Source: Thermoleophilia bacterium
GTDB lineage: Bacteria; Actinomycetota; Thermoleophilia; UBA2241
Direction of reading: 5' to 3'
Assembly (NCBI GenBank): GCA_035686425.1
Contig: DASRZL010000098.1
Coordinates: 2,761-66,760, forward strand
Length of the DNA: 64,000 bases
Every line of letters starts with the position of its first letter. Within the stretch, counting starts at the first letter, position 1. This document shows, one piece after another, positions 44,531-64,000 of the stretch. The translations under genes were made by a program, and so were the position numbers. Under the pieces are notes generated by a model. It did not search any database. It was not told the origin of the DNA and saw nothing but the letters and a program-made list of their open reading frames with translations.

Positions 44531-44542
44531 GAGAGACGGACG

Positions 44543-44588: not shown

Positions 44589-44600
44589 ATGCTTCGCGCC

Positions 44601-45677
44601 ATGCCGTTCCCGCTGCAGACAGCGCGTCTGACGATCCGGCCGCTCACGGCGGCCGACGGCGCCGACGTGTACGCCGTCCTCGCCGCCCCGAGAGTCATGC
44701 ACTTCTGGAACAGCGCGCCGCCGGCGGACCTCGCGGAGGCCGGCGAGTGGGCGGCGCTCCTCGCCGACATGCAGCGCCGCCTTGGCTTCGCGCAGTGGCA
44801 TGTGAGCGAACGGGCCGGCGGACGCCTCGTCGGCATCGCCGGCCTGCAGCCACTGGACGGAGGATCCGAGGTCGAGATCACGTTCGCGCTCGAGCCGTCG
44901 GCGTGGGGGAGAGGCTACGCCACCGAAGCCGGCGCGGCAACGGTCAAGTACGGCTTCGAAGAGGCGGGGCTCGACCGCATCGTCGGCATCGCCCGTGAGG
45001 CGAACACCGCCTCGGTGACCGTGCTGCGCAAGCTCGGCATGCGCTCGTTGGGCGTCGCCGAGTACTGGGGCAGGCAGTGGGCCAAGTACGGGCTATCGGC
45101 GCGCGCCTGGCTCGCTGAGGATCGTGCCGCTACGCCGCCGCTGGTCACGGAGCGGCTCGAGCTACGCCGCTTCGCGGCGTCCGACCTCGAGCCTCTGCTC
45201 GGTGTGTTCGGCGACGCCGCGGTCATGCGCTTCGTCGGCGCCCAACGGCGCCCCCTCAGCGCCGGCGAGGTCAGCGCATCGCTCGCCGAGGCCGGCGAGC
45301 ACTGGACCGCCCACGGCTTCGGCCCGCTCGCGGTCGTGGAACGCGCCTCCGGGCGTGTGGTCGGGGAGACCGGTCTCCAGCTGCTGGAGGCCGGTCCGGA
45401 TGTGGAGTTGACGTATACGCTGGCCCGGGCCACCTGGGGTCAGGGATACGCAACTGAGGCTGCGCGGGCCGTCCTCCTCTGGGCCTTCGCCGGCTTGCGG
45501 CTGCCTCGAGTCGCCGCTGTCGTGGACCCGGCGAACACGACCTCGTTGCGCGTGCTCGAGAAGCTCGGCATGACCACGCTCGGTGAGCGTGACTGCTATG
45601 GGTCGCTGCTGGCCGAGCACGGGATGACCCTGGGCGAGTGGCGCGATCAGGCCGGACCCGCCGGGCTGCGTCTATAA
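44601..45677 (+). CDS. Tandem RimJ/RimL-type GNAT N-acetyltransferase (two domains)
   Basis: Two copies of T.RL..R...WG.GYATEA...N..S..VL.KLGM. TATGCT 7 nt before ATG 44601. Confidence 0.88.
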   Translation: MPFPLQTARLTIRPLTAADGADVYAVLAAPRVMHFWNSAPPADLAEAGEWAALLADMQRRLGFAQWHVSERAGGRLVGIAGLQPLDGGSEVEITFALEPSAWGRGYATEAGAATVKYGFEEAGLDRIVGIAREANTASVTVLRKLGMRSLGVAEYWGRQWAKYGLSARAWLAEDRAATPPLVTERLELRRFAASDLEPLLGVFGDAAVMRFVGAQRRPLSAGEVSASLAEAGEHWTAHGFGPLAVVERASGRVVGETGLQLLEAGPDVELTYTLARATWGQGYATEAARAVLLWAFAGLRLPRVAAVVDPANTTSLRVLEKLGMTTLGERDCYGSLLAEHGMTLGEWRDQAGPAGLRL

Positions 45678-45684
45678 TCAACGG

Positions 45685-47637
45685 GTGACCTCGCCCCCCT
45701 CAACCCTGCGGCCCCTCCGCGGTCTGCGTCTCGACCTCTCCCGGCGGACGTGCAGCGAAGAGCAGCTGCCCGCCGACGTCGCCCGTGCCTATCTCGGCGG
45801 GCGCGGGCTCGGCGCGTACCTGGCGCTCCGCGAGCGGCTGTTCGACGTGGAGCCGTTCGCTCCCGAGAATCTGCTGATCTTCGCGCCGGGCCCGCTCACG
45901 GGGACCGGTGCTCCGGCGAGCGGCCGCTACAGCGTCACCAGTCGCTCGCCGCTCACCGGGACCGTCTTCGACGGCAACTCCGGCGGCAACTGGGGCAACG
46001 CATTGCGCCGCCTGGGCTGGGACTACCTGGTCGTCGGCGGCGCGCTCGACGCGCCCGGCTACGTGACCATCGGGCTGGACGGCGACGGCGACGCTCGGGT
46101 CGCCGGACCGGAGGCCGCTCAGTCCCTCGACGGCGACGGCGGCGCGGTGCTGCGCCCCGCCGCGGACCTCTGGGGTCTCGACGTGCCGGAGACGCTGGCG
46201 CGCGTGCGCGAGCTGCACCCGAAGTCCGAAGCCGCCGTGATCGGCCCGGCCGGCGAGCGCGGCGTGCTGTTCGGCAGCATCGTGAACAACCGCGGCCGGT
46301 CCATCGGACGTGGGGGCCTCGGGGCCGTGATGGGATCGAAGCGGCTCAAGGCGCTGGTCGTCAGCGGGCGCGGCGATCGCAAGCCGCCGGTGGCCGACCC
46401 CGAGCGCCTGGAGTTCATCGTCTACGAGGCCGAGAAACTGCTCAAGGCCAACCCGATCACCTCGACGGCGCTGCCCGAGTTCGGCACCTCGGTGCTCGTC
46501 AACGTGCTGGACCAGGCCGGAGCGCTGCCGACCCGCAACCACCGCGAGAGCCGGTTCGAGGGCGCCGCGGCCATCTCCGGGGAGGCGCTGAAGAAACACC
46601 ACGTGCATCACCGCTCAGCCTGCCGCGGCTGCATCATCGGCTGCGCCCGGCGCACCACCGCCGGCAGCCAGAGCGGGGAGGGCCCCGAGTACGAGAGCAT
46701 CTGGGCGTTCGGGGCCGAGTGCGGCGTGAGCGACCTCACGGCGATCGTGCAGGCCAATTACGCCTGCAACCGCGCCGGCATGGACACGATCACGATGGGC
46801 GTCACCATCGCCTGCGCCATGGACCTCGCCGAAGAGGGCTTGCTGCCCGGTGGCCCTCGGTTCGGCGACGCGAGGGCCATCATCGAGCTTGCCGAGGCCA
46901 CAGCCACCGGCGAGGGCCTCGGGGCCGAACTCGGGCTCGGCTCGGCGCGTTTCGCCGCCCTCCACGGCCGTCCCGAGCTCTCGATGAGCGTCAAACGACT
47001 CGAGATGCCGGCCTACGACCCCCGCGGCATGAAGGCCCAGGGCCTCGCCTACGCGACCAGCAACCGCGGCGGCTGCCATCTGCGGGCCAACATGCTCGGC
47101 CCCGAGATACTCGGGATACCCAAGATGGTCGACCGCTTCGCCACGCTCGGCAAGGCGGGCCTGCTCATCAACATCCAGAACCTCAACGCGGTCCTCGATT
47201 CGCTGAGCGTGTGCAAGTTCACCGCTTTCGCGATGAAGGAGGACTACTACGCCCGCCAGCTCAGCGCCGTCTGGGGCGAGACCGTCGAGCCGCAGGAGCT
47301 GCTGCTGCTCGGCGAGCGCATCTGGAACACTGAGCACCTCTTCAATCTCGCCGCGGGCTTCACACGCGCCGACGACACACTGCCGCCCCGGCTCCTGCAC
47401 GAACCCGTGCCGGCCGGGCCGTCTGCCGGTCAGGTAGTAGACTTGCCGCCGATGCTGGATGAGTACTACATCTCGCGCGGCTGGGACGCGGGCGGCGTGC
47501 CCTCCGCGGCCAAGCTGGAACGCCTCGGGCTGACTGCGACTGCGGCGGCCGCGGGCATCGCCGCCGCTTCGGCCGGCGCGCCGGACGAAGCGGCGCGCGC
47601 CGGCGCGGCTCCGGAGACCGGAACGACCAACCCGTGA
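45685..47637 (+). CDS. aor: Tungsten-family aldehyde:ferredoxin oxidoreductase
   Basis: YLGGRGLG, SPLTG, GRGGLGAVMGSK.LKA, CRGCIIGC, EYES, DTI, RGGCH. Confidence 0.92.
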   Translation: MTSPPSTLRPLRGLRLDLSRRTCSEEQLPADVARAYLGGRGLGAYLALRERLFDVEPFAPENLLIFAPGPLTGTGAPASGRYSVTSRSPLTGTVFDGNSGGNWGNALRRLGWDYLVVGGALDAPGYVTIGLDGDGDARVAGPEAAQSLDGDGGAVLRPAADLWGLDVPETLARVRELHPKSEAAVIGPAGERGVLFGSIVNNRGRSIGRGGLGAVMGSKRLKALVVSGRGDRKPPVADPERLEFIVYEAEKLLKANPITSTALPEFGTSVLVNVLDQAGALPTRNHRESRFEGAAAISGEALKKHHVHHRSACRGCIIGCARRTTAGSQSGEGPEYESIWAFGAECGVSDLTAIVQANYACNRAGMDTITMGVTIACAMDLAEEGLLPGGPRFGDARAIIELAEATATGEGLGAELGLGSARFAALHGRPELSMSVKRLEMPAYDPRGMKAQGLAYATSNRGGCHLRANMLGPEILGIPKMVDRFATLGKAGLLINIQNLNAVLDSLSVCKFTAFAMKEDYYARQLSAVWGETVEPQELLLLGERIWNTEHLFNLAAGFTRADDTLPPRLLHEPVPAGPSAGQVVDLPPMLDEYYISRGWDAGGVPSAAKLERLGLTATAAAAGIAAASAGAPDEAARAGAAPETGTTNP

Positions 47638-48242
47638 GCTCGACCGTCCTCGAGCAGTTCCAGGCCGTCGGCCGCGATCTCTTCGTCGCCGGCGTCATCA
47701 GCTCGCACGGCGGCAACGTCAGCGTGCGCATGGGGGACCGCATCCTGATCACGCGGCGCGGGTCGATGCTCGCCCGTCTCGAGGAGCGCGACATCATCGA
47801 GACCGGGCTGGAGGAGAACGACGCGAACGTGATGCTCGCCAGCACCGAGATCAACGTCCATCGGGCCATCTACGAGGGAACGGCCGCGCAGGCGATCGTG
47901 CACGCACACCCGCCCTACGCGATCGCCCGCTCGCTCATGTGTGACGAGATCGTCCCCATCGACAGCGAGGGGTCGTACCTCCTGCACAAGGTCCCCGTTG
48001 TCCACACGGAGCTCACGGCGGGATCGAAGGAAGTCGCCGAACTGCTACCCAGGTGGCTCAAGGAATACGACGTCGTGATGCTCCGCGGCCACGGACCCTT
48101 CGCCATCGGCCACTTGCTCGAGGAGGCCTACCAGCTCACCAGCGTGCTCGAGATGGCCTGCCGCATCATGACCATCGCCGACGGCCTGGGAGAGCAGGTC
48201 AAGGAGTACCGCAAAGGATCGGACCGGTACGAGACCTGGTGA
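47634..48242 (+). CDS. Class II aldolase/adducin family protein (FucA-like)
   Basis: GNVSVR, STE..VH..IY, HAH, LRGHG. GTGA overlap with aor. Confidence 0.88.
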   Translation: MSSTVLEQFQAVGRDLFVAGVISSHGGNVSVRMGDRILITRRGSMLARLEERDIIETGLEENDANVMLASTEINVHRAIYEGTAAQAIVHAHPPYAIARSLMCDEIVPIDSEGSYLLHKVPVVHTELTAGSKEVAELLPRWLKEYDVVMLRGHGPFAIGHLLEEAYQLTSVLEMACRIMTIADGLGEQVKEYRKGSDRYETW

Positions 48243-52065: not shown

Positions 52066-52434
52066 ATGACGAACGCATACCTCACTGACTGGTTGTATGT
52101 CTGGCTGTTCATCGTCGCCGGAGCGGGTCTGGTCGTCCTCATCCTGCTCTTCTCCAAGCTCATCAACCCGAGCCACCTCACAGCGGAGAAGCTGCAGCCG
52201 TACGAGTGCGGCATCCCGCCGGTCGGCAACCCGTGGCAGCCGTTCGCCGTACGGTACTTCGTGTTCGGACTCCTCTTCCTCGTCTTCGACGTGGAGGCGG
52301 CCTTCCTGTTCCCGTGGGCGATCGTCTTCCGCTCGCTGGGCGCAGCGGGGTTCATCGAGATGCTGTTGTTCATCGCGGTGCTCGCCTTCGGCCTGCTCTA
52401 CGCGTGGCGCAAGGGGGCCCTCGAGTGGGCATGA
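52066..52434 (+). CDS. nuoA: NADH-quinone oxidoreductase subunit A
   Basis: [20 protein letters not shown]. Confidence 0.95.
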
Positions 52435-52982
52435 GTGAGCGTGCCAAGACGATCCGCTACCCCAAGCTGGAGCATTTCAGCGAGCCGAACGTCATCACCA
52501 CCACCGCCGATTTCATCTTCAGCTGGGCGCGCTCGCACTCGGTCTTCCCGTTCACCTACGGCCTCGCCTGCTGCGCCATCGAGATGCTCAGCTCCGGGTT
52601 CGCCCGCTACGACGTCGCCCGGTACGGCATGGAGGTCTTTCGCCCCACGCCCCGACAGTGCGATCTCATGATCGTGGCGGGCACCGTCAACGAGAAGATG
52701 GCTCCAGTCCTCAAGCGCCTGTACGACCAGATGTCGGAGCCCAAGTGGGTCATCAGCATGGGCGCCTGCGCCACCAGCGGCGGGCCGTTCTACGACGGCT
52801 ACAACGTCGTCAACGGTGTCGACAAGATCGTGCCGGTCGACGTCTACATCCCCGGCTGCCCGCCGCGCCCCGAGGCGTTGTTCCAGGGCCTGCTGGAGTT
52901 GCAGGGCAAGATCCAGCAGCACAAGTTCGTCCCCGAGAAGCCGGCGGCGCCCGAGACGGCCGCCCCGGCCGTGGAGGCCTGA
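52431..52982 (+). CDS. nuoB: NADH-quinone oxidoreductase subunit B
   Basis: [24 protein letters not shown] (N2 ligands). Confidence 0.96.
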
Positions 52983-52986
52983 GCGC

Positions 52987-53481
52987 GTGGGCCTCACCGT
53001 CGGCAGCAACCCCATGAGCATGGACGCGATCGCCGAGCTGCTCGCCGAGCGCTTCGCCGGCGACCTCGCCGACGTGCGCATCCAGGAGCCGGACACCATC
53101 GTCGCCCGGGCGCCACGCGAGAAGCTCAAGGACCTCGCCGCGCGCCTCAAGGCGGACCCCGACGCCGGCTACGAGACGCTCAACTGGATCGCGGGCGTCG
53201 ACCGTCAGACCGGGTTCGAGAGCGTCTACCACGTGTACTCGTGGAAGACGAACACCTACCTCGAGCTGCACGTCGACCTGCCGCGCGAGAGGCCGGAGGT
53301 CGACACGGTCACCGCTGTCTGGCCGGCGGCCGACTGGCACGAGCGCGAGTCGTGGGACATGGTCGGCATCGTCTACGTCGGCCACCCCGACCTGCGCCGC
53401 ATCCTGCTCAAGGACGACTTCGTCGGCCACCCGCTGCGCAAAGACTACGTCGACCTCGCGGCGAACCACCCGCATGCCTGA
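52987..53481 (+). CDS. nuoC: NADH-quinone oxidoreductase subunit C
   Basis: ADWHERE.WDM.GI...GHPDLRRIL...F.GHPLRKDY. Start is GTG 52987 or ATG 53014. Confidence 0.93.
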   Translation: MGLTVGSNPMSMDAIAELLAERFAGDLADVRIQEPDTIVARAPREKLKDLAARLKADPDAGYETLNWIAGVDRQTGFESVYHVYSWKTNTYLELHVDLPRERPEVDTVTAVWPAADWHERESWDMVGIVYVGHPDLRRILLKDDFVGHPLRKDYVDLAANHPHA

Positions 53482-54688
53482 CCAGTTCGCCACCGCCGAG
53501 CCGGACGAAGCCGTGAAGCTCGCGCTGCGCCGTATCGAAGAGGCGACGGCGCGGGGCGAGGGCTCCGACGTCGACGGTCTCGCCTTCAACGAGGTCGTGG
53601 TCAACATGGGGCCGCAGCACCCCAGCACGCACGGCGTGCTGCGCCTGGTCGTGACTCTCGACGGCGAGCTCGTCAAGGACGTCATCCCGGTCATCGGCTA
53701 CCTGCACCGCTGCAAGGAGAAGCTCGCCGAGCGGCGCACGTACTTCCAGTACATCCCGATCGTCGACCGCACCGAGTACGTCGCCAGCATCAACTGCGAG
53801 TGGGCGTACGTGATGGCGGTCGAGAAGCTCGCCGGCATCCAGGTGACGCGGCGGGCGGAGTTCATCCGCGTCATCACCGGCGAGCTCATGCGCATCGCCA
53901 GCCACCTGGTGGCGGTCGGCACCTTCACCGCCGACCTCTCGCCGCTGGGGACGGCCATGGTGTTCTACATGTTCCGCGAGCGCGAACAGATCCTCGACCT
54001 CATGGAGCAGCTCACGGGCGCGCGCATGATGTTCAACTACTTCCGCTTCGGCGGCGTGCGCTACGACCTGCCTGACGGCTGGGTCGAGCGGTGTCGCGAC
54101 TTCCTCGCGAAGTTCCCGAAGCTCATCAAGGAGTACGAGGCCCTCGTCGACGACAACGCCATCTTCCTGCAGCGCACGCAGGGCAAAGGCGTCATCACGC
54201 AGCAGGACGTCGTCGACTACGGGATCACCGGTCCCAACGCGCGCGCGTCCGGCATCGACCTGGACCTGCGGCGCACGCGTCCGTACTCGGTGTATCCGGA
54301 GCTTGACTTCGCGCTCTGCACCGAGCAGCACGGCGACATCTTCGACCGCTACCGGGTGCGCATGGAAGAGATGCGCGAGAGCGTCAAGATCATCGAGCAG
54401 TGTCTGGATATGCTCCCGATGGGACCCGTGCAGGTTGGTTCGCTGCGCGCCCCGTACGTGATCACGCCGCCGCCCGGATCGTGCTACGTCGGCCAGGAGA
54501 ACCCGCGCGGCGAGTACGGCACCTACATCGAGAGCGACGGGTCGCGGTATCCGTACCGTCTCAAGTTCCGCGACCCCTGCTTCTGCAACCTGCAGATCTT
54601 CCCGAAGCTCCTCAGCGGCAACAAGATCGCCGATGCCGTCGCCATCTCGGGCAGCATCGACCTCGTGCTGGGAGGGATCGACCGCTAA
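53474..54688 (+). CDS. nuoD: NADH-quinone oxidoreductase subunit D
   Basis: NMGPQHPSTHGVLRL, GYLHR, DRTEY, ENPRGE, C-terminal D.VLGGIDR. Confidence 0.95.
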   Translation: MPDQFATAEPDEAVKLALRRIEEATARGEGSDVDGLAFNEVVVNMGPQHPSTHGVLRLVVTLDGELVKDVIPVIGYLHRCKEKLAERRTYFQYIPIVDRTEYVASINCEWAYVMAVEKLAGIQVTRRAEFIRVITGELMRIASHLVAVGTFTADLSPLGTAMVFYMFREREQILDLMEQLTGARMMFNYFRFGGVRYDLPDGWVERCRDFLAKFPKLIKEYEALVDDNAIFLQRTQGKGVITQQDVVDYGITGPNARASGIDLDLRRTRPYSVYPELDFALCTEQHGDIFDRYRVRMEEMRESVKIIEQCLDMLPMGPVQVGSLRAPYVITPPPGSCYVGQENPRGEYGTYIESDGSRYPYRLKFRDPCFCNLQIFPKLLSGNKIADAVAISGSIDLVLGGIDR

Positions 54689-54689
54689 G

Positions 54690-55808
54690 GTGGATATCTT
54701 CCTCGGCATCCTCCGTGCCATCCTCTTCGTCGTCATCGCGTACGCTGTGGTGTTCGTGGCGGCGCTGGTGAACATCCTCTTCGAGCGTCGCGTCCTTGCG
54801 TTCATGCAGGACCGCCTCGGTCCCAATCGAACGGGCCCGCAGGGCGTGCTGCAGAGCGTCGCCGACGCGTTCAAGATGATGGGCAAGGAGGACTTCCGGC
54901 CGCTCCTCGCCGACCCGTTCCTCTTCACGCTCGCGCCGGTGACGGTCATGATCGGCGCCGTGGCCGTCCAGCTCGTCGTGCCGTACACCGGCGGGCTCAT
55001 GGGGACGAGCCTCAACGTCGGCATCATCTTCCTCGTCGCGATCACGAGCTTCACGACCCTGTCGATCCTGCTCGGCGGCTGGTCGTCGCGCAACAAGTAC
55101 TCGCTCGTCGGAGCGCTGCGCGCCGCCGCCCAGATGATCAGCTACGAGATCCCGATGATCCTCGGCCTGCTCGTGGTGGCGATGATCGTCGGCTCGCTGC
55201 GCGTCGACGTGGTCGTCGCCTTCCAGGCCGGCTACGAGTGGATCGGCTTGTACGCGCCGTTCACCTTCCTCATCTTCTACATCGCCTCCATCGCCGAGCT
55301 GAACCGCGGCCCCTTCGACCTTCCCGAGTCCGAGTCGGAGCTCGTGTCCGGCTACGGCACCGAGTACTCGGGCATGCGCTTCGGCATGTTCTTCCTGAAC
55401 GAGTACGCCGGGATGACGATCATGTCCATGGTAGCCGTCACGCTGTTCTTCGGCGGCTGGATGGGGCCGGGCGCCGGCGCGATCCAGTTCTGGGGCGTCT
55501 CCTGGATCGGGCTGATCTGGTTCCTCGTCAAGACGTATGCGCTGGTCTTCGCGCTGGTCTGGATCAGGCTCTCGCTGCCGCGCCTCCAGGTCGACCAGCT
55601 CATGGCCTTCGCCTGGAAGATCCTCATCCCGCTCGGGCTCGTCAACATCCTCGCCACCGCGGCGATCATGCTGTGGGTGCCGAGCTGGAAGTGGGGCCTC
55701 GCGATCTTCAGCTGGGTCTCGTTCCTCGCCTTCGTCGGCCTCCTGGACCCCATCCTCAAGCGTCGCCTGCGCAAGCAGCGTGAGCGCCAGCCGGTGGTGA
55801 CTGCCTGA
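54690..55808 (+). CDS. nuoH: NADH-quinone oxidoreductase subunit H
   Basis: ERR.LA.MQ.R.GPNR, DAFK..GKED, SYE, NR.PFDLPESESELVSG. Confidence 0.95.
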   Translation: MDIFLGILRAILFVVIAYAVVFVAALVNILFERRVLAFMQDRLGPNRTGPQGVLQSVADAFKMMGKEDFRPLLADPFLFTLAPVTVMIGAVAVQLVVPYTGGLMGTSLNVGIIFLVAITSFTTLSILLGGWSSRNKYSLVGALRAAAQMISYEIPMILGLLVVAMIVGSLRVDVVVAFQAGYEWIGLYAPFTFLIFYIASIAELNRGPFDLPESESELVSGYGTEYSGMRFGMFFLNEYAGMTIMSMVAVTLFFGGWMGPGAGAIQFWGVSWIGLIWFLVKTYALVFALVWIRLSLPRLQVDQLMAFAWKILIPLGLVNILATAAIMLWVPSWKWGLAIFSWVSFLAFVGLLDPILKRRLRKQRERQPVVTA

Positions 55809-56569
55809 TGCTCGGCATGTTCAAGGCGATGCGCACGACGCTCAAGCATCTGCCCATGAAGAAGATCACGGTGCAGTACCCGGAGCAGCGGGAGGTACTG
55901 CCGGCGCGCAGCCGGGGTCTCTTCCGCGTGGTCATCGACCCCTCCAACGGCGAGCCCCGCTGCCGCTCGTGCACGCTGTGCGAGAGCAACTGCCCCGTCC
56001 AGGTGATCCGCGTGAACCACACGAGCAAGTACCTGCTGCCGGTGCCCAACGCGGCGCGCATCGCCGAGGCGCGCCTGGCCGCGCAGCAGGGCATCGAACT
56101 CAAGGACCTGCAGCCCGTGCTCGACGACTACTACGAGCACGGCACCGGCCTCATCGCCATGCTGCAGAACGCGCAGGAGGTCTACGGCTACCTGCCGCGC
56201 ATCGCCCTCCAGGAGATCAGCCTGCAAACGGGCGTCTCGCTCAGCCAGCTCTACGGCGTCTCGAGCTTCTACAACCAGTTCCGGCTCTCACCGGTCGGCG
56301 AGTACATCATCGACGTCTGCCACGGCACCGCCTGCCACGTCGCGGGGGCGGTCCAGATCACCGAGGCCTTGGAGGAGGAGCTCGGGGTCGCCGACGGCAA
56401 GACGACCACCGACATGAAGTTCACGCTCTCGTCGGTCGCCTGCATGGGCGCCTGCTCGCAGGCGCCCGTCATGCGCATCGGCGACCAGACCTACGGCGGT
56501 CTCACCCCTGACCAGACACGCAAGATCATCCGCGACCTCATGGAAGAGGTCGGCGGTACGAAGGGGTGA
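55808..56569 (+). CDS. nuoI/nuoE: Fusion: N-terminal half of NuoI (one CxxCxxCxxxCP) + NuoE/HydC [2Fe-2S] domain
   Basis: aa 1-70 read TVQYPE...RG...CRSCTLCESNCP. From about aa 97 it reads LQNAQEVYGYLP...SFY.QF, VCHGTACH, ACMGAC. Confidence 0.88.
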   Translation: MLGMFKAMRTTLKHLPMKKITVQYPEQREVLPARSRGLFRVVIDPSNGEPRCRSCTLCESNCPVQVIRVNHTSKYLLPVPNAARIAEARLAAQQGIELKDLQPVLDDYYEHGTGLIAMLQNAQEVYGYLPRIALQEISLQTGVSLSQLYGVSSFYNQFRLSPVGEYIIDVCHGTACHVAGAVQITEALEEELGVADGKTTTDMKFTLSSVACMGACSQAPVMRIGDQTYGGLTPDQTRKIIRDLMEEVGGTKG

Positions 56570-58482
56570 GCAGAAGCACCATGACTGACGACATCACCAC
56601 CCCGCGCCCCGACACCGAGGGCCGCAACGTCAGCGTCGCCGCGCGTCCGGGCGGAGGCTACAACGTCAAGGTCTGCGCCGGCACGGCCTGCTTGTTCGCC
56701 GGCTCGATGGCCGTGTACGACGCCTTCGTCCAGGAGGTCCAGACCGCCGGGCTCGGCGACAAGGTCGAGCTGAGCCTCATCGGCTGCCACGGCCTCTGTT
56801 CGATGAGCCCTGTCGTGGTGCTCAGCGACGACACGCTGTACGGCCACCTCAAGCCCAAGGACGTCGCCAAGGTCGTCGAGGAGCACCTGAAGGGCGGCCA
56901 GCCTGTCGAGCGCTTCCTCTACAAGGACGCGCAGACCGGCGAGCGCATCCGAAACTGGAAGGACATCGGGTTCTACAGGCTGCAGACGCGCATCGCGCTG
57001 CGCGACGTCGGCGTCATCAACCCGGAGACCATCGACGCCTATATCGCCGTCGGCGGCTACGAGGCCGCCAGGATGGCGCTCACCGAGAAGACGCCCGAGT
57101 GGATCATCGAGCACGTCACCGACTCGGGTATCCGCGGTCGCGGCGGCGCGGGGTTCCCGACCGGCGTCAAGTGGAAGTTCGCCAATCAGTCCAAGAGCGA
57201 CGAGAAGTACCTCATCTGCAACGCCGACGAGGGCGACCCCGGGGCGTTCATGGACTGCTCGATCCTCGAGGGCGACCCGCACGTCGTCATCGAGGGCATG
57301 ATCATCGGCAGCTACGCCATCGGCGCGCACGAGGGCTACGTGTACGTGCGCGCCGAGTACCCGACGGCCGTCAAGCGCCTCACCATGGCGGTCGCCGCCG
57401 CTGAGGAGCGCGGCTTCCTGGGCAAGGACGTCTTCGGCACCGGCTGGGAGTTCAACGTCCACCTCAAGCTCGGCGCCGGCGCGTTCGTCTGCGGTGAGGA
57501 GACGGCGCTCATCGCCTCCATCGAGGGCAAGCGCGGCATGCCGCGCACGCGGCCGCCGTTCCCTGCGGTCTCGGGCCTCTGGGGCAAGCCCACGAACATC
57601 AACAACGTCGAGACCTTCTCGAACATCCCGTGGATCATCAAGAACGGCGCCCAGGCCTACTCCGCGCTCGGCGCCGAGACCAGCCGCGGCACGAAGGCCT
57701 TCAGCCTCGCCGGCAAGGTGGTCAACGGCGGCCTCGTCGAGGTGCCCATGGGATCGAGCCTCCGGCATCTGATCTTCGACGTCGGCGGCGGCATCAAGGA
57801 CGGCAAGAAGTTCAAGGCCGTGCAGCTCGGCGGCCCGTCCGGCGGGTGCGTGCCGGCGAGCCTGCTCGATACGCCGGTCGACTACGAGAGCCTGGCCGCG
57901 ACCGGCGCCATCGTCGGCTCCGGCGGCATGGTCGTGGTCGACGAGGAGACCTGCATGGTCGACCTGGCGCGCTTCTTCCTCGACTTCACGCAGAAGGAGT
58001 CGTGCGGCAAGTGCGTCCCCTGCCGCCTCGGCACCAAGCGCATGCTCGAGACGCTCGACCGCATCAGGAAGGGCGATGGGCGCGAGGGAGACATCGAGCT
58101 GCTCGAGGAGATGGGCCACTACATCATCGAAGGCAGCCTGTGCGCCCTCGGCGGGACCGCCCCGAACCCCGTGCTCACCACGATCAAGTACTTCCGCGAC
58201 GAGTACGAGGCCCACATCCGCGAGAAGCGGTGTCCGGCCGGCAAGTGCAAGGAGCTGATCACCTACTACATCGACGCCGAGGCCTGCACCGGCTGCACCC
58301 TGTGCGCCAAGAAGTGCCCCACCTTGTGCATCACCGGCGAGAAGAAGCAGCTGCACGTCATCGACGCGGCCGACTGCATCAAGTGCGACACCTGCCGCCA
58401 GGTCTGCAAGTTCGACGCCGTCAAGGTGCGCTCGGGCATCGAGCACGCAGTGGCCGGCGCCGGCGAAGGAGCTGAGGCCTGA
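56566..58482 (+). CDS. nuoF: NuoF/HydB-type FMN/NAD(H) subunit with extra N-terminal [2Fe-2S] and C-terminal 2x[4Fe-4S] domains
   Basis: CAGTAC...GCHGLC, GRGGAGFP, NADEGDPGAFMD, GAFVCGEETAL, ESCGKCVPC, CTGCTLC..CP / CIKCDTC..C. Confidence 0.92.
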   Translation: MSRSTMTDDITTPRPDTEGRNVSVAARPGGGYNVKVCAGTACLFAGSMAVYDAFVQEVQTAGLGDKVELSLIGCHGLCSMSPVVVLSDDTLYGHLKPKDVAKVVEEHLKGGQPVERFLYKDAQTGERIRNWKDIGFYRLQTRIALRDVGVINPETIDAYIAVGGYEAARMALTEKTPEWIIEHVTDSGIRGRGGAGFPTGVKWKFANQSKSDEKYLICNADEGDPGAFMDCSILEGDPHVVIEGMIIGSYAIGAHEGYVYVRAEYPTAVKRLTMAVAAAEERGFLGKDVFGTGWEFNVHLKLGAGAFVCGEETALIASIEGKRGMPRTRPPFPAVSGLWGKPTNINNVETFSNIPWIIKNGAQAYSALGAETSRGTKAFSLAGKVVNGGLVEVPMGSSLRHLIFDVGGGIKDGKKFKAVQLGGPSGGCVPASLLDTPVDYESLAATGAIVGSGGMVVVDEETCMVDLARFFLDFTQKESCGKCVPCRLGTKRMLETLDRIRKGDGREGDIELLEEMGHYIIEGSLCALGGTAPNPVLTTIKYFRDEYEAHIREKRCPAGKCKELITYYIDAEACTGCTLCAKKCPTLCITGEKKQLHVIDAADCIKCDTCRQVCKFDAVKVRSGIEHAVAGAGEGAEA

Positions 58483-58484
58483 CC

Positions 58485-60959
58485 ATGGCGACGACGGTGG
58501 AGAACGTGCCGCAGACCACGCCGCGCCCCGGCCAGATCACCCTGACCGTCGACGGTCAGGAGGTGATCTGCGAGCGCGGCGACACGATCCTCGACGCGGC
58601 GCAGCGCATCGGCATCCACATCCCGACGCTCTGCTACGAGCCGCGGCTGCCGGCGACGGCCGCCTGCCGCATGTGCATCGTCGAGGTCGAGGGCGCCCGC
58701 AAGATGATCCCGAGCTGCTCGGCCGCGGTCTCGGACGGCATGGTCGTGCGTACCGACACCGAGAAGGTCCGCGCCATGCGGCACCTCTACCTCGAGCTGC
58801 TGCTCAGCGACCACAACTCGTTTTGCACGCCGCCGTGCCGCGACGCCTGCCCGACGCACATCAAGATCCCGCAGTTCCTCGACTACATCGCGCACAAGGA
58901 CTACAAGAACGGTGTGCGCAAGCTGCGCGAGGACCTGCCCTTCCCGGCCGTGCTCGGGCGCGTCTGCCCGCGGCCGTGCGAGGGCCCGTGCCGCCGGCAG
59001 CTCGTCGAGCATCCCATCACCATCTGCCAGCTGCACCGCTTCATGGCCGATCAGACCATCGACGAGGAGCAGACCGGCGAGCTGCTGCTGCCGGTCGAGC
59101 CGAAGGCCGACACCGGCAAGAAGATCGCCATCGTCGGCGGTGGGCCGGCCGGCCTAGCCGCCGCCTTCTATGCCCGGCTCGAGGGGCACTCGGTCAAGAT
59201 CTTCGAGGCCCTGCCCAAGCCGGGCGGCATGCTGCGCTACGGCATCCCGAGCTACCGCCTGCCGCGCGACCTCCTGGACAAGGAGATCAACGTGCTGTGG
59301 CGCTTGGGCGTCGAGCTCCAGGTCAACAGCCGGCTCGGCGCCGACTACCAGCTCGAGGACCTCACGGCCGAGTACGACGCCGTGTTCCTCGCCCTCGGCG
59401 CCTTCAACAGCAACGACATGCGCATCCCCGGTGAGGACGCCGACGGCGTGGTCACGGCCGTCGACTTCCTCGGCGAGCTCGAAGTGACCGGGGCCGTGCA
59501 CGTGGGCGACAAGGTCGCCGTGATCGGCGGCGGCTTCACCGCCATGGACGCCTGCCGCACCAGCATCCGCAAGGGCGCGAAAGAGGTCACGTGCCTCTAC
59601 CGGCGCTCACGAAAAGAGATGCCGGCTCACGTCACCGAGGTCGACGAGGCCGAGGAGGAGGGCGTCAAGCTGGAGCTTCTCATCGCCCCGGTGCGCGTGC
59701 TCGCCGACGAGCAGAACAAGGTCACCGGCATCGAGATGCAGCGCATGGAGCTCGGCGAGCCTGATGCCTCCGGCCGCCGCCGGCCGGTACCGATCGAGGG
59801 CTCCGAGTTCATCATCGAGTGCGACCAGGTCATCGCCGCCGTCGGCCAGTTCCCCAAGCTCGACGGCACCAGCGAGGAGCAGGGCGTCAAGCGCACCAAG
59901 TGGCGCACCATCCAGGTCGACGACTGGACGTTCCAGACCGAGGACCCGCGCGTGTTCGCCGGCGGCGACGCCGTGCTCGGCGCGCAGACGGTGATCCAGG
60001 CGGTCGCCCAGGGCAAGAAGGCCGCCTGGAGCATGGATGCCTACTTACGCGGCGCCGACATGACCGAGGTCTCGCAGTCGCTCGCCGAGCTCAAGGCGAC
60101 GCCGTTCTTCCACGCGCTGAGCGCCAAGACCGACCTCGACCCACGGATCTCCCGCATGGCCGAGCTCCCGCCGGTGTTCATCGACATGACCACGGACGTG
60201 ACGCACCCGAGCCCGCCGGCCGAGATGCCCAAGCTCGGACCCGACGCCCGCACGACGAACTTCGAGCAGATCGAGCTCGGGTTCAGCGAGGCCGAGGCCG
60301 TACGCGGCGCCGAGCTCTGCCTGGATTGCTACTGTCCGGCCAGCGGCAAGTGCGACCTGCAGCGCTACGGCATCGAGTACGAGGTCTTCAAGAACCGCTT
60401 CCACGGCGGCGACGCCCACGACTACCCGGCCGACTTCCGCCACGACTTCATCATGCGCGAGCCCAACCGCTGCATCAATTGCGGCCGCTGCGTGCGCGTC
60501 TGCCGTATGGAGGTCGGATCGAGCTGCTACGACAACATGGACCGCGGTTTCGACACCATCGTGAGCACCGCCGACAACCTGCCGCTGCAGCTGGTCGGCT
60601 GCGTGAGCTGCGGCAAATGCGCCGAGACGTGCCCCACGGGTTCCATCGAGACCAACCCGCGCATCCTCGGCACTTACGACCTCGACGAGAGCCGCTGCAT
60701 CTTCTGCGGCGAGTGCGTCGAGGTCTGCCCCTACGACGCGCTCGAGCAGTCAGACTTCTTCGAGCTCGCCGGCTACAGCCGCACGGCCATGGCGCGCGAG
60801 TCCCTGTACGTGCGCGAGCCGCGCCCCGTCGACCCGTTGCGCGAGACGGTCAAGGACCTCGTCCCGCACGTGCACGACGCCGAGCTCGGCCGCGGCTGGG
60901 TGTGGGAGCCCATGAAGGACGATCCCATCCCGCTCGACGACCCGGAGGACGTGAGCTGA
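58485..60959 (+). CDS. Multidomain Fe-S flavoprotein: NuoG/HydA N-terminal [2Fe-2S] + GltD/NfnA-like FAD/NADPH domain + 2x[4Fe-4S] + C-terminal half of NuoI
   Basis: PTLC..ACRMC..PSC; PCRDACP/CPRPCEGPC; GGGPAG; GGGFTAMD, YRRSR; CINCGRC, CVSCGKC; then YDLDESRCIFCGECVEVCP..FELAGYSR. Confidence 0.88.
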   Translation: MATTVENVPQTTPRPGQITLTVDGQEVICERGDTILDAAQRIGIHIPTLCYEPRLPATAACRMCIVEVEGARKMIPSCSAAVSDGMVVRTDTEKVRAMRHLYLELLLSDHNSFCTPPCRDACPTHIKIPQFLDYIAHKDYKNGVRKLREDLPFPAVLGRVCPRPCEGPCRRQLVEHPITICQLHRFMADQTIDEEQTGELLLPVEPKADTGKKIAIVGGGPAGLAAAFYARLEGHSVKIFEALPKPGGMLRYGIPSYRLPRDLLDKEINVLWRLGVELQVNSRLGADYQLEDLTAEYDAVFLALGAFNSNDMRIPGEDADGVVTAVDFLGELEVTGAVHVGDKVAVIGGGFTAMDACRTSIRKGAKEVTCLYRRSRKEMPAHVTEVDEAEEEGVKLELLIAPVRVLADEQNKVTGIEMQRMELGEPDASGRRRPVPIEGSEFIIECDQVIAAVGQFPKLDGTSEEQGVKRTKWRTIQVDDWTFQTEDPRVFAGGDAVLGAQTVIQAVAQGKKAAWSMDAYLRGADMTEVSQSLAELKATPFFHALSAKTDLDPRISRMAELPPVFIDMTTDVTHPSPPAEMPKLGPDARTTNFEQIELGFSEAEAVRGAELCLDCYCPASGKCDLQRYGIEYEVFKNRFHGGDAHDYPADFRHDFIMREPNRCINCGRCVRVCRMEVGSSCYDNMDRGFDTIVSTADNLPLQLVGCVSCGKCAETCPTGSIETNPRILGTYDLDESRCIFCGECVEVCPYDALEQSDFFELAGYSRTAMARESLYVREPRPVDPLRETVKDLVPHVHDAELGRGWVWEPMKDDPIPLDDPEDVS

Positions 60960-61468
60960 TGCCCGGCGGCGACTTCCATCCCTGGTTCTTCGTCGTCGTG
61001 GCTGCGTGGGTGCTCGTCTGCGCCCTCGGCGTCGTCCTGTTCAAGAAGATCATGTACTCCGCCGTCTCGATGGTGTTCTGCTTCCTCGGCGTCGCCTTCG
61101 CCTACGCGCTGCTCAACGCCCCCCTGGTGGCGGTCATCCAGATCCTCGTGTACGTCGGCGCCATCTCGGTCGTCATCATCTTCGCCATCATGCTCACCGA
61201 GGTCCAACACGGTGGGTACGAGCTGTTCTTCAACCGGCAGACGGCCGTCGCCGCGGCCGCGGCGCTCATCGGCGCCGCGGTGCTCGCGATCGTCTCTCTC
61301 TCCGCCGACATCGGCCCGATCGGCGACAAGTCGCTGACGCCGGGCCTCCGCCCGCTCTCCAAGCTCATCTTCGACCGCTACGTGCTCCCGTTCGAGCTGG
61401 TCTCGCTCGTGCTCGTGGCGGCGATGATCGGCGCGATCGTCCTGGCGACTCGCGAGAGGGAGCGCTGA
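60959..61468 (+). CDS. nuoJ: NADH-quinone oxidoreductase subunit J
   Basis: QILVYVGAISVVIIFAIML and PFELVSLVLVAAMIGAIVL. TGATG overlap. Confidence 0.93.
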   Translation: MPGGDFHPWFFVVVAAWVLVCALGVVLFKKIMYSAVSMVFCFLGVAFAYALLNAPLVAVIQILVYVGAISVVIIFAIMLTEVQHGGYELFFNRQTAVAAAAALIGAAVLAIVSLSADIGPIGDKSLTPGLRPLSKLIFDRYVLPFELVSLVLVAAMIGAIVLATRERER

Positions 61469-61776
61469 TGAACGCCCTTTACTGGTGGCTGCTGCTCGCC
61501 TTTCTGCTCTTCTGCATCGGCGCGTTCGGCGTGCTCGCGCGCCGCAACATCATCCTGGTCGTCATGAGCCTCGAGATCATGCTCAACGCGGTCAACATCG
61601 CCCTCGTCGCGATCGCCAACTTCCGCGGCGGCGCGCGCGGCGCCGGCACGCTGTTCGCCCTGTTCATCATCGTGCTGGCAGCCGCCGAAGTGACGGTGGG
61701 CCTCGCCATCGTGATCGCCAACTACCGCAACAGGAGCACCGTGCAGACCGACACCTACGACGAGCTCAAGGGCTAG
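61468..61776 (+). CDS. nuoK: NADH-quinone oxidoreductase subunit K
   Basis: RRN..V.MSLEIMLNAVN and LAAAEVTVGLAI. Confidence 0.95.
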   Translation: MNALYWWLLLAFLLFCIGAFGVLARRNIILVVMSLEIMLNAVNIALVAIANFRGGARGAGTLFALFIIVLAAAEVTVGLAIVIANYRNRSTVQTDTYDELKG

Positions 61777-61789: not shown

Positions 61790-63703
61790 GTGGAGGGGAC
61801 CCAGTACATGAAGATCGCCGTGGCGCTGATCGTGCTGCTGCCGCTGGCCGGCTTCATCATCACACTGCTGCTCGGCAAGCGTTTCTTCCGCGCCAAGGCG
61901 CACATCCTGCCGGTCACCGTGGTCACCATCACGGCCGTGCTGTCGATCTATGCGTTCGAGTGGGTCTTCCGGCATCCGGAGGAGGCCTTCATCTGGAACG
62001 CGTTCACGTGGGTGGCCGCAGGCCGGTTCACGGTGGAGTGGGGTTTCCTCGTCGACCCGCTCACCGGGATCATGCTCCTCGTCGTCGGCATCATCGGCAT
62101 GCTCGTGCACTACTATTCCATCGGCTATATGAAGGACGACCCCGGGTACTACCGGTTCTTCGCCTATCTGAACCTGTTCATGTTCGCGATGTTCGTGCTC
62201 ATCCTCGCGAACAACTACCTGCTCCTCTTCCTCGGCTGGGAAGGAGTGGGCCTCTGCTCGTACCTGCTCATCTCGTTCTGGTTCCGCAAGAAGAGCGCCA
62301 GCCAGGCAGGCAAGAAGGCGTTCCTGGTCAACCGCGTCGGCGACTTCGGCTTCACGCTGGGCATGTTCCTGATCTTCGTCACCACCGGCACGCTGCAGTT
62401 CACCGGCGTCTTCGACAAGGCCGAGATGATCGGCTCGGGCACGCTGCTCTGGATCTGCCTGCTGCTCTTCACCGGCGCCGTGGGCAAGAGCGCCCAGTTC
62501 CCGCTGCACGTATGGCTGCCGGACGCCATGGAAGGCCCCACGCCGGTCAGCGCGCTCATCCACGCCGCCACCATGGTCAACGCCGGCGTCTACATGGTGG
62601 CGCGCTCGTACCCGCTGTTCCTTCACTCCGACGTGGCGATGCTCATCGTGATGATCGTCGGCACGTTCACCGCGATCTACTCCGCGTACATCGCCATCAC
62701 CCAGAACGACATCAAGAAGGTGATCGCCTACTCCACCGTATCGTCACTCGGTTTCATGTTCCTGGCCCTCGGCGCCGGGGCGTGGGCGGCCGGCATCTTC
62801 TACCTCTTCGCGCACGGCTTCTTCAAGGGCCTCCTGTTCCTCTGCTCGGGCTCGGTGATCCACGCCATGAGCGGCGAACAGGACATGCGCCAGATGGGCG
62901 GGTTGCGCAAGAAGATCCCCATTACGTTCTGGACGATGCTCATCGGCGCCATCGCTCTCATCGGCGTCTTCCCCTTCGCCGGGTTCTGGGCCAAGGACGA
63001 GATCCTCGGCGGGGCCTTTGTCGGCGGGTACTACGTGGTGTGGGCGGTCGGCATCGTCACGGCCTTCCTGACGGCCGTGTTCGCCTTCCGCCTCATCTTC
63101 ATGACGTTCTTCGGCGAGTCCCGCGCCTCCGAAGAGGTGCAGCACCACATCCACGAGTCCCCCAAGGTCATGACCATCCCGCTGGTGCTTCTGGCCATCC
63201 CGTCGGCGCTGTTGGGAGCCGTCGCCGGCTTCCCGCCGGAGAAGGGCTGGATCCACACGTTCCTCGAGCCGGTCTTCTACGATGTCGAGCACGAGGAGTT
63301 CTACTGGGTCGGCGAGGGCGGTGGCCTCATGCTGTTCTCGGTCGCCGTGGCCCTGCTGGGCGTCTACGTGGCCTACGTGCTGTACATCAGGCGTACCGAG
63401 GTGCCGGGGCGCATGGCGAAGCGTCTGCCGATCGCCTACAAGGCATCGCTCAACAAGATGTACATGGACCAGGTCTACGAAGTGGTGCCTATCCGCAGCA
63501 CCTTGGCCCTCGCCAGTTGGCTGTGGACCTTCTTCGACGTGAAGATCATCGACGGCGCCGTCAACGGGCTCGCCTGGCTCTGGGGCTGGTTCGGCGACAA
63601 GCTGCGGCCCATCCAGACCGGCCACGTGCAGAACTACGTGATGTACGTGTTCGGCGGCATGATCGTGCTCGTCGTGGTCGTCTCCTGGGTGTGGGGGGGC
63701 TGA
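61790..63703 (+). CDS. nuoL: NADH-quinone oxidoreductase subunit L
   Basis: GWEGVGLCSYLLI, GKSAQFPLHVWLPDAMEGPTPVSALIHAATMV, AHGFFKGLLFL. Confidence 0.96.
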   Translation: MEGTQYMKIAVALIVLLPLAGFIITLLLGKRFFRAKAHILPVTVVTITAVLSIYAFEWVFRHPEEAFIWNAFTWVAAGRFTVEWGFLVDPLTGIMLLVVGIIGMLVHYYSIGYMKDDPGYYRFFAYLNLFMFAMFVLILANNYLLLFLGWEGVGLCSYLLISFWFRKKSASQAGKKAFLVNRVGDFGFTLGMFLIFVTTGTLQFTGVFDKAEMIGSGTLLWICLLLFTGAVGKSAQFPLHVWLPDAMEGPTPVSALIHAATMVNAGVYMVARSYPLFLHSDVAMLIVMIVGTFTAIYSAYIAITQNDIKKVIAYSTVSSLGFMFLALGAGAWAAGIFYLFAHGFFKGLLFLCSGSVIHAMSGEQDMRQMGGLRKKIPITFWTMLIGAIALIGVFPFAGFWAKDEILGGAFVGGYYVVWAVGIVTAFLTAVFAFRLIFMTFFGESRASEEVQHHIHESPKVMTIPLVLLAIPSALLGAVAGFPPEKGWIHTFLEPVFYDVEHEEFYWVGEGGGLMLFSVAVALLGVYVAYVLYIRRTEVPGRMAKRLPIAYKASLNKMYMDQVYEVVPIRSTLALASWLWTFFDVKIIDGAVNGLAWLWGWFGDKLRPIQTGHVQNYVMYVFGGMIVLVVVVSWVWGG

Positions 63704-63757
63704 CATGAGCGGTATGCCTACGTTGTCCCGCTCGTGTACGCCGGAAGAGGGAGCGTC

Positions 63758-64000
63758 ATGAGCTGGAGCGACCAGATCGGCTTCCCGCTGCTCTCGATCA
63801 TCACGTTCCTGCCTCTGGCGGGCGTGCTCCTCATCCTGCTCTTCGGCCGCGGCAAGCCGGCCGTCTACAAGGTCATCTCGCTCATCGTGACCCTGGCGGC
63901 CTTCGCTCTCTCGGTGTGGATGCTCTTCGCCTTCAAGATCAAGCTGCCCGGCATGCAGTTCGCGGAGAACGTCACCTGGATCAAGGCACTGAACATCAAG
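63758..64000 (+). CDS. nuoM: NADH-quinone oxidoreductase subunit M (5' part; truncated by window end)
   Basis: My translation from ATG 63758: MSWSDQIGFPLLSIITFLPLAG...MQFAENVTWIKALNIK. Follows nuoL. Confidence 0.85.
   Translation, partial: MSWSDQIGFPLLSIITFLPLAGVLLILLFGRGKPAVYKVISLIVTLAAFALSVWMLFAFKIKLPGMQFAENVTWIKALNIK

Follow-up and report, generated by a model that had tools for sequence, protein, structure and literature searches.

A split NuoI suggests that an Nfn-type Bfu module is stitched into complex I in Thermoleophilia

In the NfnABC enzymes of Caldicellulosiruptor saccharolyticus (Csac) and Thermococcus sibiricus (Tsi), electrons run from NADPH along FAD-A7-A6-A3-A2-A1 to a core of B1, FMN and C1, with exits to NAD+ at the FMN and to ferredoxin via C1, B3 and B4, and the branch A2-A4-A5 is a dead end (PMC11829005, PMC12018979). 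A 14-subunit complex I with a Bfu-type NuoEFG, named ‘Nuo-Bfu’, has been predicted by Schut et al. 2022 for Geobacter, Deferribacteres, Planctomycetes and Nitrospirae (Actinobacteria were not in the survey), and it has been proposed to pump protons while passing electrons from both NADH and reduced ferredoxin to menaquinone (PMC9304861). In the Mbx-like complexes of Thermotoga and proteobacteria, a GltD-related flavoprotein stands in the place of NuoI (Degli Esposti 2015, PMC4758237). Both ‘Nuo-Bfu’ and ‘Mbh-Bfu’ were deduced from gene neighbourhood alone; they bear on whether Bfu modules truly attach to membrane proton pumps and on how complex I gained its NADH-oxidising module. Here we describe a nuo operon in a stretch of 64,000 nucleotides from a Thermoleophilia bacterium of the UBA2241 lineage (GCA_035686425.1, contig DASRZL010000098.1, positions 2,761 to 66,760; ‘the window’ in the following). 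The window has about 70% G+C and was annotated from a list of its open reading frames (ORFs), by Pfam and NCBIfam searches and by motif reading. As read from the sequence, nuoI of this operon is split: its N-terminal half is fused ahead of a NuoE-like protein (ORF1), its C-terminal half stands at the end of an NfnA-like protein (ORF3), and a flavoprotein gene (ORF2) lies between the two.

The two halves are recognised independently of each other. In ORF1, residues 1-74 are hit by NCBIfam NuoI models (model positions 2-66 of 121); in ORF3, residues 726-790 correspond to positions 103-162 of 204 of the NuoI model NF004537. Each piece carries exactly one CxxCxxCxxxCP motif, the first of NuoI in ORF1 (C52, C55, C58, C62) and the second in ORF3 (C738, C741, C744, C748), so that NuoI is not encoded as a single polypeptide. 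Two further motifs of the same kind in ORF3 (663-673 and 706-716) belong, by homology to NfnA, to the A2/A4 ferredoxin domain. Once joined, the halves give one ungapped alignment with the NuoI/TYKY chains of complex I structures, for instance with 7ar7_I (residues 4-119 against 23-137, E=1.5e-19), and NuoI is broken in the loop that separates its cluster motifs. Some 25 residues link the N-terminal half to the NuoE-like domain; the C-terminal half, judging from the alignments, occupies the place of the usual molybdopterin-like/Fdh-like domain in ORF3. No further NuoI-like gene was found between nuoH and nuoJ, and the outer junctions resemble an ordinary nuoH-nuoI-nuoJ arrangement. An earlier reading of the window, made from the letters and their translations only (the sequence-only reading), had proposed that the module is wired to complex I; the fusion of the NuoI halves to the first and last subunits of the module bears this out and is the actual wiring, which that reading had missed.

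With the joined halves as query, no unsplit nuoI was found in a search that reached close relatives only; half-matches alone were returned, either to residues 1-78 or to residues 52/33-177 inside ORF3 orthologs. Word-limited fusion searches, which distant cases could escape, recovered 175 clusters (90% identity) with the N-terminal half in proteins of NuoE length and 149 (likewise 90%) in which the C-terminal half closes a large protein, all from this one family. In three database entries (P0393, P0396 and P0399) the end of ORF3 and NuoJ (PF00499) appear as one protein. The likeliest cause is a frameshift or a gene-calling error at the single base that the two genes share; a genuine additional fusion is less likely.

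The remainder of ORF1 is a complete NuoE/HydC domain (residues 104-244; Pfam 2Fe-2S_thioredx, PF01257, positions 4-144 of 145, E=1.8e-46). It lies above the cut-off of the NCBIfam NuoE model NF005722 and conserves the cluster C1 ligands of a BfuC (C171, C176, C212, C216). In ORF2, Pfam identifies an N-terminal thioredoxin-like 2Fe-2S domain (27-106), the Complex1_51K FMN domain (184-355), an SLBB domain, an N3-type NADH_4Fe-4S domain (466-550) and a C-terminal 2x[4Fe-4S] domain (567-620). Along with the FMN/NADH domain, the B1 ligands C480, C483, C486 and C526 are conserved (45 of 46 rows). The extras of BfuB, which are not found in the non-bifurcating NuoF, are all present in ORF2 and conserved: the Fer4 motifs of B3/B4 (574-584 and 604-614), the residues H550, C556 and C561 of the B2 (Zn) site and the cysteines C37, C42, C74 and C78 of the N-terminal [2Fe-2S] cluster B5. 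The stretches ‘DPGAFMD’ and ‘GAGAFVCGEETAL’ are identical in the solved BfuB chains 7t2r_B, 9bov_B and 8oh5_B, and the Zn-site stretch ‘H-I-R-E-K-R-C-P-A-x-x-C’ as well as both C-terminal cluster motifs are common to ORF2 and the BfuB structures. Pfam and the solved chains thus agree with the sequence-only reading, which had seen in this NuoF-like subunit an N-terminal [2Fe-2S] domain, a C-terminal 2x[4Fe-4S] domain and the GAFM and GAFVCG residues.

Scores and trees point the same way. Against the solved bifurcating B subunits, ORF2 reaches 767-806 bits (7t2r, A. mobile NiFe-HydABCSL; 9bov, Csac NfnABC; 8oh5, S. ovata StnABC; 9n5u, a further NfnABC entry; 7q4v, a FeFe-HydABC entry), versus about 390-405 bits against true NuoF structures. 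Its identity is about 59% to BfuB structures versus 48% to P0346, a true NuoF representative, and its score of 500.2 lies under the cut-off (558.65) of the NuoF equivalog TIGR01959, which P0346 passes. In three trees, computed with FastTree and quick IQ-TREE from a search of 1.84 billion representatives and not including Nuo-Bfu BfuB sequences, the Thermoleophilia BfuB are monophyletic (support 99-100), nested in the long-form BfuB radiation and apart from true NuoF; the NuoF/HydB/BfuB phylogeny that the sequence-only reading had suggested as a check has therewith been run and places the subunit away from NuoF. These data support the assignment of ORF2 to the bifurcating-type BfuB rather than to NuoF, and with C1 in ORF1 and the FMN/NADH site, B1 and the BfuB extras in ORF2, the module is at the sequence level a member of the Bfu family in every respect looked at. 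A narrower origin of this BfuB within Nfn is not claimed: in a first FastTree tree the sister was the Nfn clade, made up of Csac NfnB and StnB, at a support of 98, but this placement was lost when Thermoleophilia rows were added and also in quick IQ-TREE. Divergence is uneven in one subclade (loci L075, L071, L061, L025 and L032), where BfuB and BfuC are 48-60%, the NfnA-like subunit 57-78% and NuoB and NuoD 76-87% identical to those of the window; all BfuB nevertheless form one clade.

On homology, the third subunit is NfnA/StnC-like. ORF3 begins with a NuoG/HydA-type 2Fe-2S domain (A1; Pfam Fer2_4, 17-92), followed by a GltD/NfnL-like FAD and NADPH domain (residues ~114-523; Pfam Fer4_20 and Pyr_redox_2, GltD/NfnB-like, 114-510), which is inserted in the His-ligated cluster motif, and then by the A3/A6 and A2/A4 [4Fe-4S] motifs (Pfam Fer4_Nqo3 and 4Fe-4S motifs, 655-752). 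The motifs ‘CLYRRSRKEMPA’, YRRSR, GxGxxG and GxGxxA (GGGFTA) can be read in ORF3, and C122, C161 and C165 match the cysteines of cluster A7. Using phmmer, ORF3 residues 19-744 match residues 5-698 of 1178 of Csac NfnA (9bov_A) with 636 bits, and StnC (8oh5_C) is matched with 566 bits. The match to NfnA stops at residue 744, at the point where NfnA goes over into its Fdh-like domain, and NuoG models match only the N-terminal ~100 residues. Neither a hydrogenase H-cluster nor a molybdopterin domain (Molybdopterin, Molybdop_Fe4S4) was found in ORF3 by Pfam. The third subunit had been described in the sequence-only reading as lacking H-cluster and Mo site and as carrying a GltD-type FAD domain with YRRSR, and Pfam and the sequence confirm both; its label ‘NfnABC-type’ fits the domain make-up and does not extend to the Fdh-like domain, which is absent, nor to the lysine of A7, whose position is taken by a histidine.

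Two observations concern relatives of ORF3. A paralog in 16 loci of the same genomes (L043-L056, L064 and L072, including L045:7917-12227, plus strand) is 64-68% identical to residues 2-742 and thereby nearer to ORF3 than the solved NfnA proteins are. In L045 a complete molybdopterin oxidoreductase domain follows, and the motif ‘CART*HAPTVAGL’ contains an in-frame TGA; bfuB and bfuC do not adjoin the paralog. From its sequence the paralog is probably a selenocysteine formate dehydrogenase with a 2Fe-2S domain and a GltD (NADPH) insertion; it may share a common origin with ORF3. In a peat/bog subclade (L035, L037, L071 and L078) the tblastn match to ORF3 is ~2.7-2.8 kb long versus 2.47 kb here, and the ~220-330 additional nucleotides could be a longer gene or upstream sequence.

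Relatives of the locus were scanned at one genome per species, which returned 80 loci, all from metagenome-assembled genomes. The complete colinear order A-B-C-D-H-I_N-E-F-A-I_C-J-K-L (I_N and I_C being the NuoI halves) is present in 47 of the 80 loci, a further 17 are colinear to their contig ends, and the remaining 16 hold the ORF3 paralog. The loci are labelled Thermoleophilia, Actinomycetes or Actinomycetota (UBA2241 included), with the exception of one ‘Deltaproteobacteria’ contig. ORF3 ortholog identity goes down to 57%; nonetheless, the fusion of the A subunit with I_C is in frame and has the same spacing in all loci with clean sequence (57 of 57), the motif cysteines of I_N are invariant in 48 of 49 rows, and the Fe-S ligand cysteines of the NuoI pieces, BfuC, BfuB and the NfnA-like part are invariant barring frameshifted or truncated rows. 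The stretch recurs in metagenomes from at least 12 soil and sediment studies, and unitigs of four independent studies span the nuoH/I_N::E and A::I_C/nuoJ junctions. Short metatranscriptome contigs match ORF1-3 and nuoJ at 93-100% identity, which we regard as weak evidence of expression. Two contigs binned as ‘Deltaproteobacteria bacterium MAG248’ (L030 and L120; JBLMXT010000054.1 and JBLMXT010000061.1) carry ORF3 and ORF1 orthologs with 92% identity, probably as a result of a binning error rather than of gene transfer.

The genes are part of a single densely packed plus-strand operon which, from ORFs and Pfam matches, extends from position 52066 to the window end, the whole gene order being nuoA-B-C-D-H-[I_N::E]-F-[A::I_C]-J-K-L-M-N (Table 1); the coordinates and all features named in the sequence-only reading were recovered. 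nuoN lies outside the window, and in the ortholog locus L026 nuoM and nuoN complete the operon, the next gene being an unrelated ymdB. The core subunits A, B, C, D, H, J, K, L, M and N of complex I are thus encoded together, and three antiporter-like subunits are among them. A canonical N-module consisting of NuoE, a NuoF equivalog and a NuoG with MopB-like domain is not encoded. TGATG overlaps of 1 base join the stop of nuoH to the start of ORF1 and the stop of ORF3 to the start of nuoJ; ORF1 and ORF2 overlap by GTGA, and ORF2 and ORF3 are 2 nt apart. NuoB contains the tandem CC, GACATSGG and GCPP motifs, and NuoD contains QHPSTHG and IGYLH and lacks NiFe cysteines; we take these residues to be equivalent to those of Thermus thermophilus Nqo6 and Nqo4, respectively, and the N2 ligands and the quinone His/Tyr motifs, both claimed previously, are indeed present. 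A promoter scan found no sigma-70-like promoter, and terminator-like matches were weak and intragenic. No second copy (paralog) of the module was found within the 64-kb window.

Table 1. Features of the nuo operon in the window (positions refer to the whole stretch)
Feature	Position	Strand	Basis and remarks
nuoA	52066..52434	+	Pfam Oxidored_q4, E=1.7e-37
nuoB	52431..52982	+	Pfam Oxidored_q6, E=4.5e-30; cluster N2 ligand motifs
nuoC	53014..53481	+	Pfam Complex1_30kDa, E=1.5e-40
nuoD	53474..54688	+	Pfam Complex1_49kDa, E=2.6e-94; quinone-site motifs
nuoH	54633..55808	+	Pfam NADHdh, E=2.7e-108; start codon uncertain
ORF1 (BfuC/NuoE-like, 253 aa)	55808..56569	+	Pfam, NCBIfam
NuoI N-terminal half = ORF1 residues 1-78	55808..56041	+	NCBIfam NuoI models, alignment to TYKY/NuoI
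BfuC/NuoE/HydC-like [2Fe-2S] domain = ORF1 residues ~100-253	56105..56569	+	Pfam 2Fe-2S_thioredx
ORF2 (BfuB/HydB-type flavoprotein, 638 aa)	56566..58482	+	Pfam, bit scores against BfuB structures, trees
ORF3 (824 aa, NfnA/StnC-like + NuoI C-terminal half)	58485..60959	+	Pfam, phmmer, NCBIfam
NfnA/StnC-like part = ORF3 residues 1-720	58485..60644	+	phmmer to 9bov_A, 8oh5_C; Pfam
NuoI C-terminal half + C-terminal tail = ORF3 residues 726-824	60660..60959	+	NCBIfam NF004537, structure alignment
nuoJ	60959..61468	+	Position, synteny; PF00499 on merged gene calls of orthologs
nuoK	61468..61776	+	Position, synteny
nuoL	61790..63703	+	Synteny; L-like paralogs M, N next in related loci (Proton_antipo_M)
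nuoM, 5' part only	63734..64000	+	Open-ended ORF running off the window

A close likeness is to the Nfn-Bfu enzymes (StnABC of Sporomusa ovata, 8oh5; Csac NfnABC, 9bov/9bp5; Thermococcus sibiricus). The three-subunit C-B-A make-up is shared, as are a BfuB with FMN, B1, Zn site, B3/B4 and an N-terminal 2Fe-2S-type domain, a BfuC with C1, and an A subunit with a 2Fe-2S domain, a GltD/NfnL-like insertion in the His-ligated cluster motif and an A2/A4 domain. Unlike these soluble enzymes, the module described here has the Fdh-like domain with A5 replaced by the C-terminal half of NuoI and a BfuC that bears the N-terminal half. It is therefore, as far as the gene structure tells, not a free-standing heterotrimer; its subunits are fused to the NuoI halves within a nuo operon. 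The A7 ligand is His here versus Lys there, and at the N-terminal BfuB site all four 2Fe-2S cysteines are present here, whereas the Csac and Tsi enzymes hold Zn. With ‘Nuo-Bfu’ the locus shares a Bfu-type module encoded in the middle of a nuo operon. In contrast to the order A-B-C-D-E-F-G-H-I of ‘Nuo-Bfu’, which has an intact NuoI and a NuoG-type A subunit without NADPH domain, the order is not that of a 14-gene operon: the backbone is of the 11-subunit type, the module lies within nuoI after nuoH, and the A subunit is of the Nfn type.

The nuoA-B-C-D-H-I-J-K-L-M-N backbone without canonical nuoEFG is shared with the 11-subunit enzymes (cyanobacterial NDH-1, Fpo, Desulfitobacterium and Dehalococcoides; PMC11238625). 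Those enzymes have an intact NuoI and non-covalently docked ferredoxin, F420 or unknown donors; here a flavoprotein module is fused into NuoI. As in the canonical 14-subunit NADH:quinone oxidoreductase, the E, F and N-terminal G folds, the N6a-N6b-N2 chain and the quinone site are homologous. The MopB domain of canonical NuoG is absent, and ORF2 does not reach the NuoF equivalog cut-off. The canonical exit from NuoG to NuoI is the His-ligated cluster N5; here the GltD branch holds that position, and the exit must be A4. The N-module interface of E. coli is stabilised by non-covalent extensions (PMC8357420), in contrast to the covalent fusions found here. A GltD-type NAD(P)H flavoprotein on a complex I-like membrane module is also a trait of the Mbx-like complexes. 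There NuoI has given way to the GltD protein and NuoD to a hydrogenase-like homolog; in the present operon NuoI persists as two pieces, the Bfu core is complete and NuoD has quinone-site residues. In the literature searched, which was not the whole literature, no description of a split NuoI or of an Nfn-type module on complex I was found. A Bfu module on complex I has thus been predicted before, and an Nfn-type module together with a split NuoI appear to be undescribed.

We propose, with moderate confidence, that the operon encodes a single complex I in the membrane, with an Nfn-type member of the Bfu family, stitched into NuoI, as its electron-input module. The most secure part of this proposal is that the products very likely form one physical complex, because the NuoI halves are fused to the first and last subunits of the module and NuoI cannot be complete without them. 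The two halves would re-form the ferredoxin fold in trans, with N6a and N6b each ligated by two polypeptides, and the re-formed NuoI would dock the module on NuoB/C/D/H. The covalent fusions would plausibly stand in for the contacts of the MopB-like domain of NuoG. In E. coli NuoI, residues listed as surrounding N6a are found next to the second motif and those surrounding N6b next to the first (PMC8357420). In the present case, the motif of the N-terminal half would supply N6b with three ligands and N6a with one. Electrons enter NuoI at N6a, and N6b faces N2. The A4 motif of ORF3 (C706-C716) is followed by the motif of the NuoI C-terminal half 21 residues further on; this spacing and the positions of N6a and N6b suggest a wire A2-A4-N6a-N6b-N2.

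By homology to NfnABC, electrons of NADPH would pass via FAD, A7, A6 and A3 to A2. NADH would react at the FMN, which with B1 and C1 forms the Bfu ‘flavobicluster’ and would be joined to A2 via A1, and ferredoxin would dock at B3/B4. From A2 the quinone branch would lead through A4, N6a (mostly ORF3), N6b (mostly ORF1) and N2 (NuoB) to menaquinone at NuoD/NuoH, which would make A2 a three-way hub of the NADPH branch, the NADH/ferredoxin core and the quinone branch. The elements readable along this path are the NADH/FMN and NADPH/FAD motifs, the ferredoxin-type domain, the unbroken cluster ligands and the quinone-site residues. The complex would most likely pump protons while passing electrons from NADH, NADPH and reduced ferredoxin to menaquinone; NADH and ferredoxin could act as joint donors (confurcation), in line with the ‘Nuo-Bfu’ proposal, and the same wires would permit Nfn-type balancing of NADPH, NADH and ferredoxin as well as reverse operation. 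Quinone reduction from NAD(P)H is a likely property of such a complex. An obligatory bifurcation or confurcation with ferredoxin we propose only tentatively and would rate somewhat below even chances. More speculative still, and in our estimation unlikely, is the full picture of a natural four-substrate, proton-pumping bifurcating machine in which the A2-A4 branch has become an outlet to quinone, NADH, NADPH and ferredoxin are interchanged and together coupled to the quinone pool and the proton-motive force, and the split ferredoxin fold assembles in trans as a new principle of assembly. As to its origin, an operon of the 11-subunit type (A-B-C-D-H-I-J-K-L-M-N) may have received a bfuC-bfuB-nfnA cassette in frame, the insertion site being the loop between the two [4Fe-4S] motifs of NuoI. 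Soluble bfuC-bfuB-nfnA cassettes whose NfnA is short (650 aa) and lacks a MopB domain are present in other metagenomes and could be the kind of unit that was insertable.

Several points weigh against the proposed complex or against parts of it. The known A7 cluster has three Cys ligands and one Lys, and in ORF3 the Lys is replaced by His: Lys170 of Csac NfnA aligns with His184 (59034-59036 in the window), which is filled by H in 69 of 70 rows and is common to orthologs and FDH-like paralogs. In Stn, replacement of the A7 Lys impairs bifurcation (PMC11829005). The immediate sister of the Thermoleophilia BfuB clade differs between trees. The assembly of the ferredoxin fold in trans is a step we infer from the two sequences, and the single-chain AlphaFold2 model of ORF3 (36 close homologs; mean predicted local distance difference test score, pLDDT, 62.9) is unreliable, with pLDDT <50 from residue 563 to the end, and of no use for the geometry of A4 and the NuoI C-terminal half. 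None of the matching RNA contigs, all of which are short, spans the I_N::E junction, and all host organisms are uncultured. Finally, menaquinone (~-74 mV) as acceptor removes the thermodynamic need for confurcation, which is not required because the oxidation of NADH and that of ferredoxin by menaquinone are each exergonic alone.

The strongest alternative is that the same complex is a plain two-donor dehydrogenase which passes electrons of NADH (at FMN) and NADPH (at FAD) downhill to menaquinone, with B3/B4 and C1 retained as baggage or for structural reasons. The sequence contains both donor sites and, as far as N2, a cluster chain without a break; as an acceptor menaquinone surpasses either nucleotide by far, so that coupling is unneeded; the change from Lys to His at A7 may signal relaxed bifurcation-tuned potentials, and canonical complex I likewise retains off-path clusters (N1a, N7). 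However, the ligands of B3, B4, B5, C1 and Zn are kept across two diverged subclades, although BfuB identity drops to 49-60%, which argues for selection on the low-potential branch, and the characterised relatives with the full cofactor set all bifurcate (PMC9304861). We consider a plain dehydrogenase rather improbable and would give it about one chance in four.

The direction of electron flow bears on a second alternative, and here the neighbourhood of the operon has to be considered. Upstream of it the window contains IorA and IorB (40340-42720) and an aldehyde:ferredoxin oxidoreductase (AOR, 45685-47634), in a unit that is parted from nuoA by three minus-strand genes (PBP, tatC and tatA). 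The sequence-only reading had both enzymes supply the complex with reduced ferredoxin; both are present, and the link is one of co-location in a separate transcription unit only. The surrounding catabolic cluster (40340-48239, plus strand) encodes the alpha and beta subunits of indolepyruvate:ferredoxin oxidoreductase (IOR), a PaaK-like aryl-CoA ligase, a double GNAT protein, the AOR, which is of the tungsten type, and a class II aldolase, and suggests a fermentation of (aromatic) amino acids or aromatics that yields reduced ferredoxin. Further upstream (30218-33109, plus strand) lies the gene of a 964-aa protein that joins an FAD-linked oxidase (GlcD/D-lactate dehydrogenase type) to 4Fe-4S dicluster and CCG domains (GlcF/HdrD-like); this protein may be another quinone- or heterodisulfide-linked dehydrogenase. 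A complex working predominantly in reverse, in which menaquinol and the proton-motive force drive the reduction of NAD(P)+ and, via the flavobicluster, of ferredoxin, is conceivable in that complex I and Bfu enzymes are reversible (PMC9304861) and an NADPH site on an enzyme coupled to the proton-motive force would be a membrane transhydrogenase-like source of NADPH. Yet IOR and AOR suggest a surplus of reduced ferredoxin rather than a shortage, a menaquinol-generating lithotrophic system was not seen within the window, and the sequence itself sets no direction; a dominant reverse direction appears quite unlikely to us.

That there is no joint complex at all, either because a mobile nfnABC-like cassette broke nuoI and left a dead complex I beside a soluble transhydrogenase or because the junctions are artefacts, might be read from the pipeline names (merely ‘NAD(P)H-dependent oxidoreductase subunit E’ and ‘FAD-dependent oxidoreductase’) and from an operon that seems nuoI-less, but is hardly credible given in-frame fusions at 64 or more loci from different species, each with its eight NuoI cysteines and its nuo genes intact, independent short-read assemblies covering both junctions, translational-coupling overlaps retained at both outer junctions, and an ORF3 identity down to 57%, over which a broken operon is not expected to persist intact.

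A complex I with the Nfn-type Bfu module stitched into NuoI would have a docking geometry unlike that of canonical complex I, with an exit via A4 and not via N5, would add an NADPH port to a respiratory complex and would contain a natural split dicluster ferredoxin fold. If the four-substrate machine were true, it would provide the first sequence-level proof of Bfu docking on complex I and a living intermediate for the acquisition of the N-module by complex I. Annotation pipelines will miss nuoI in these operons together with the nature of the ‘NuoE’ and ‘FAD-dependent oxidoreductase’ genes, which distorts metabolic reconstructions for a widespread group of Actinobacteria of anoxic soil, peat and sediment.

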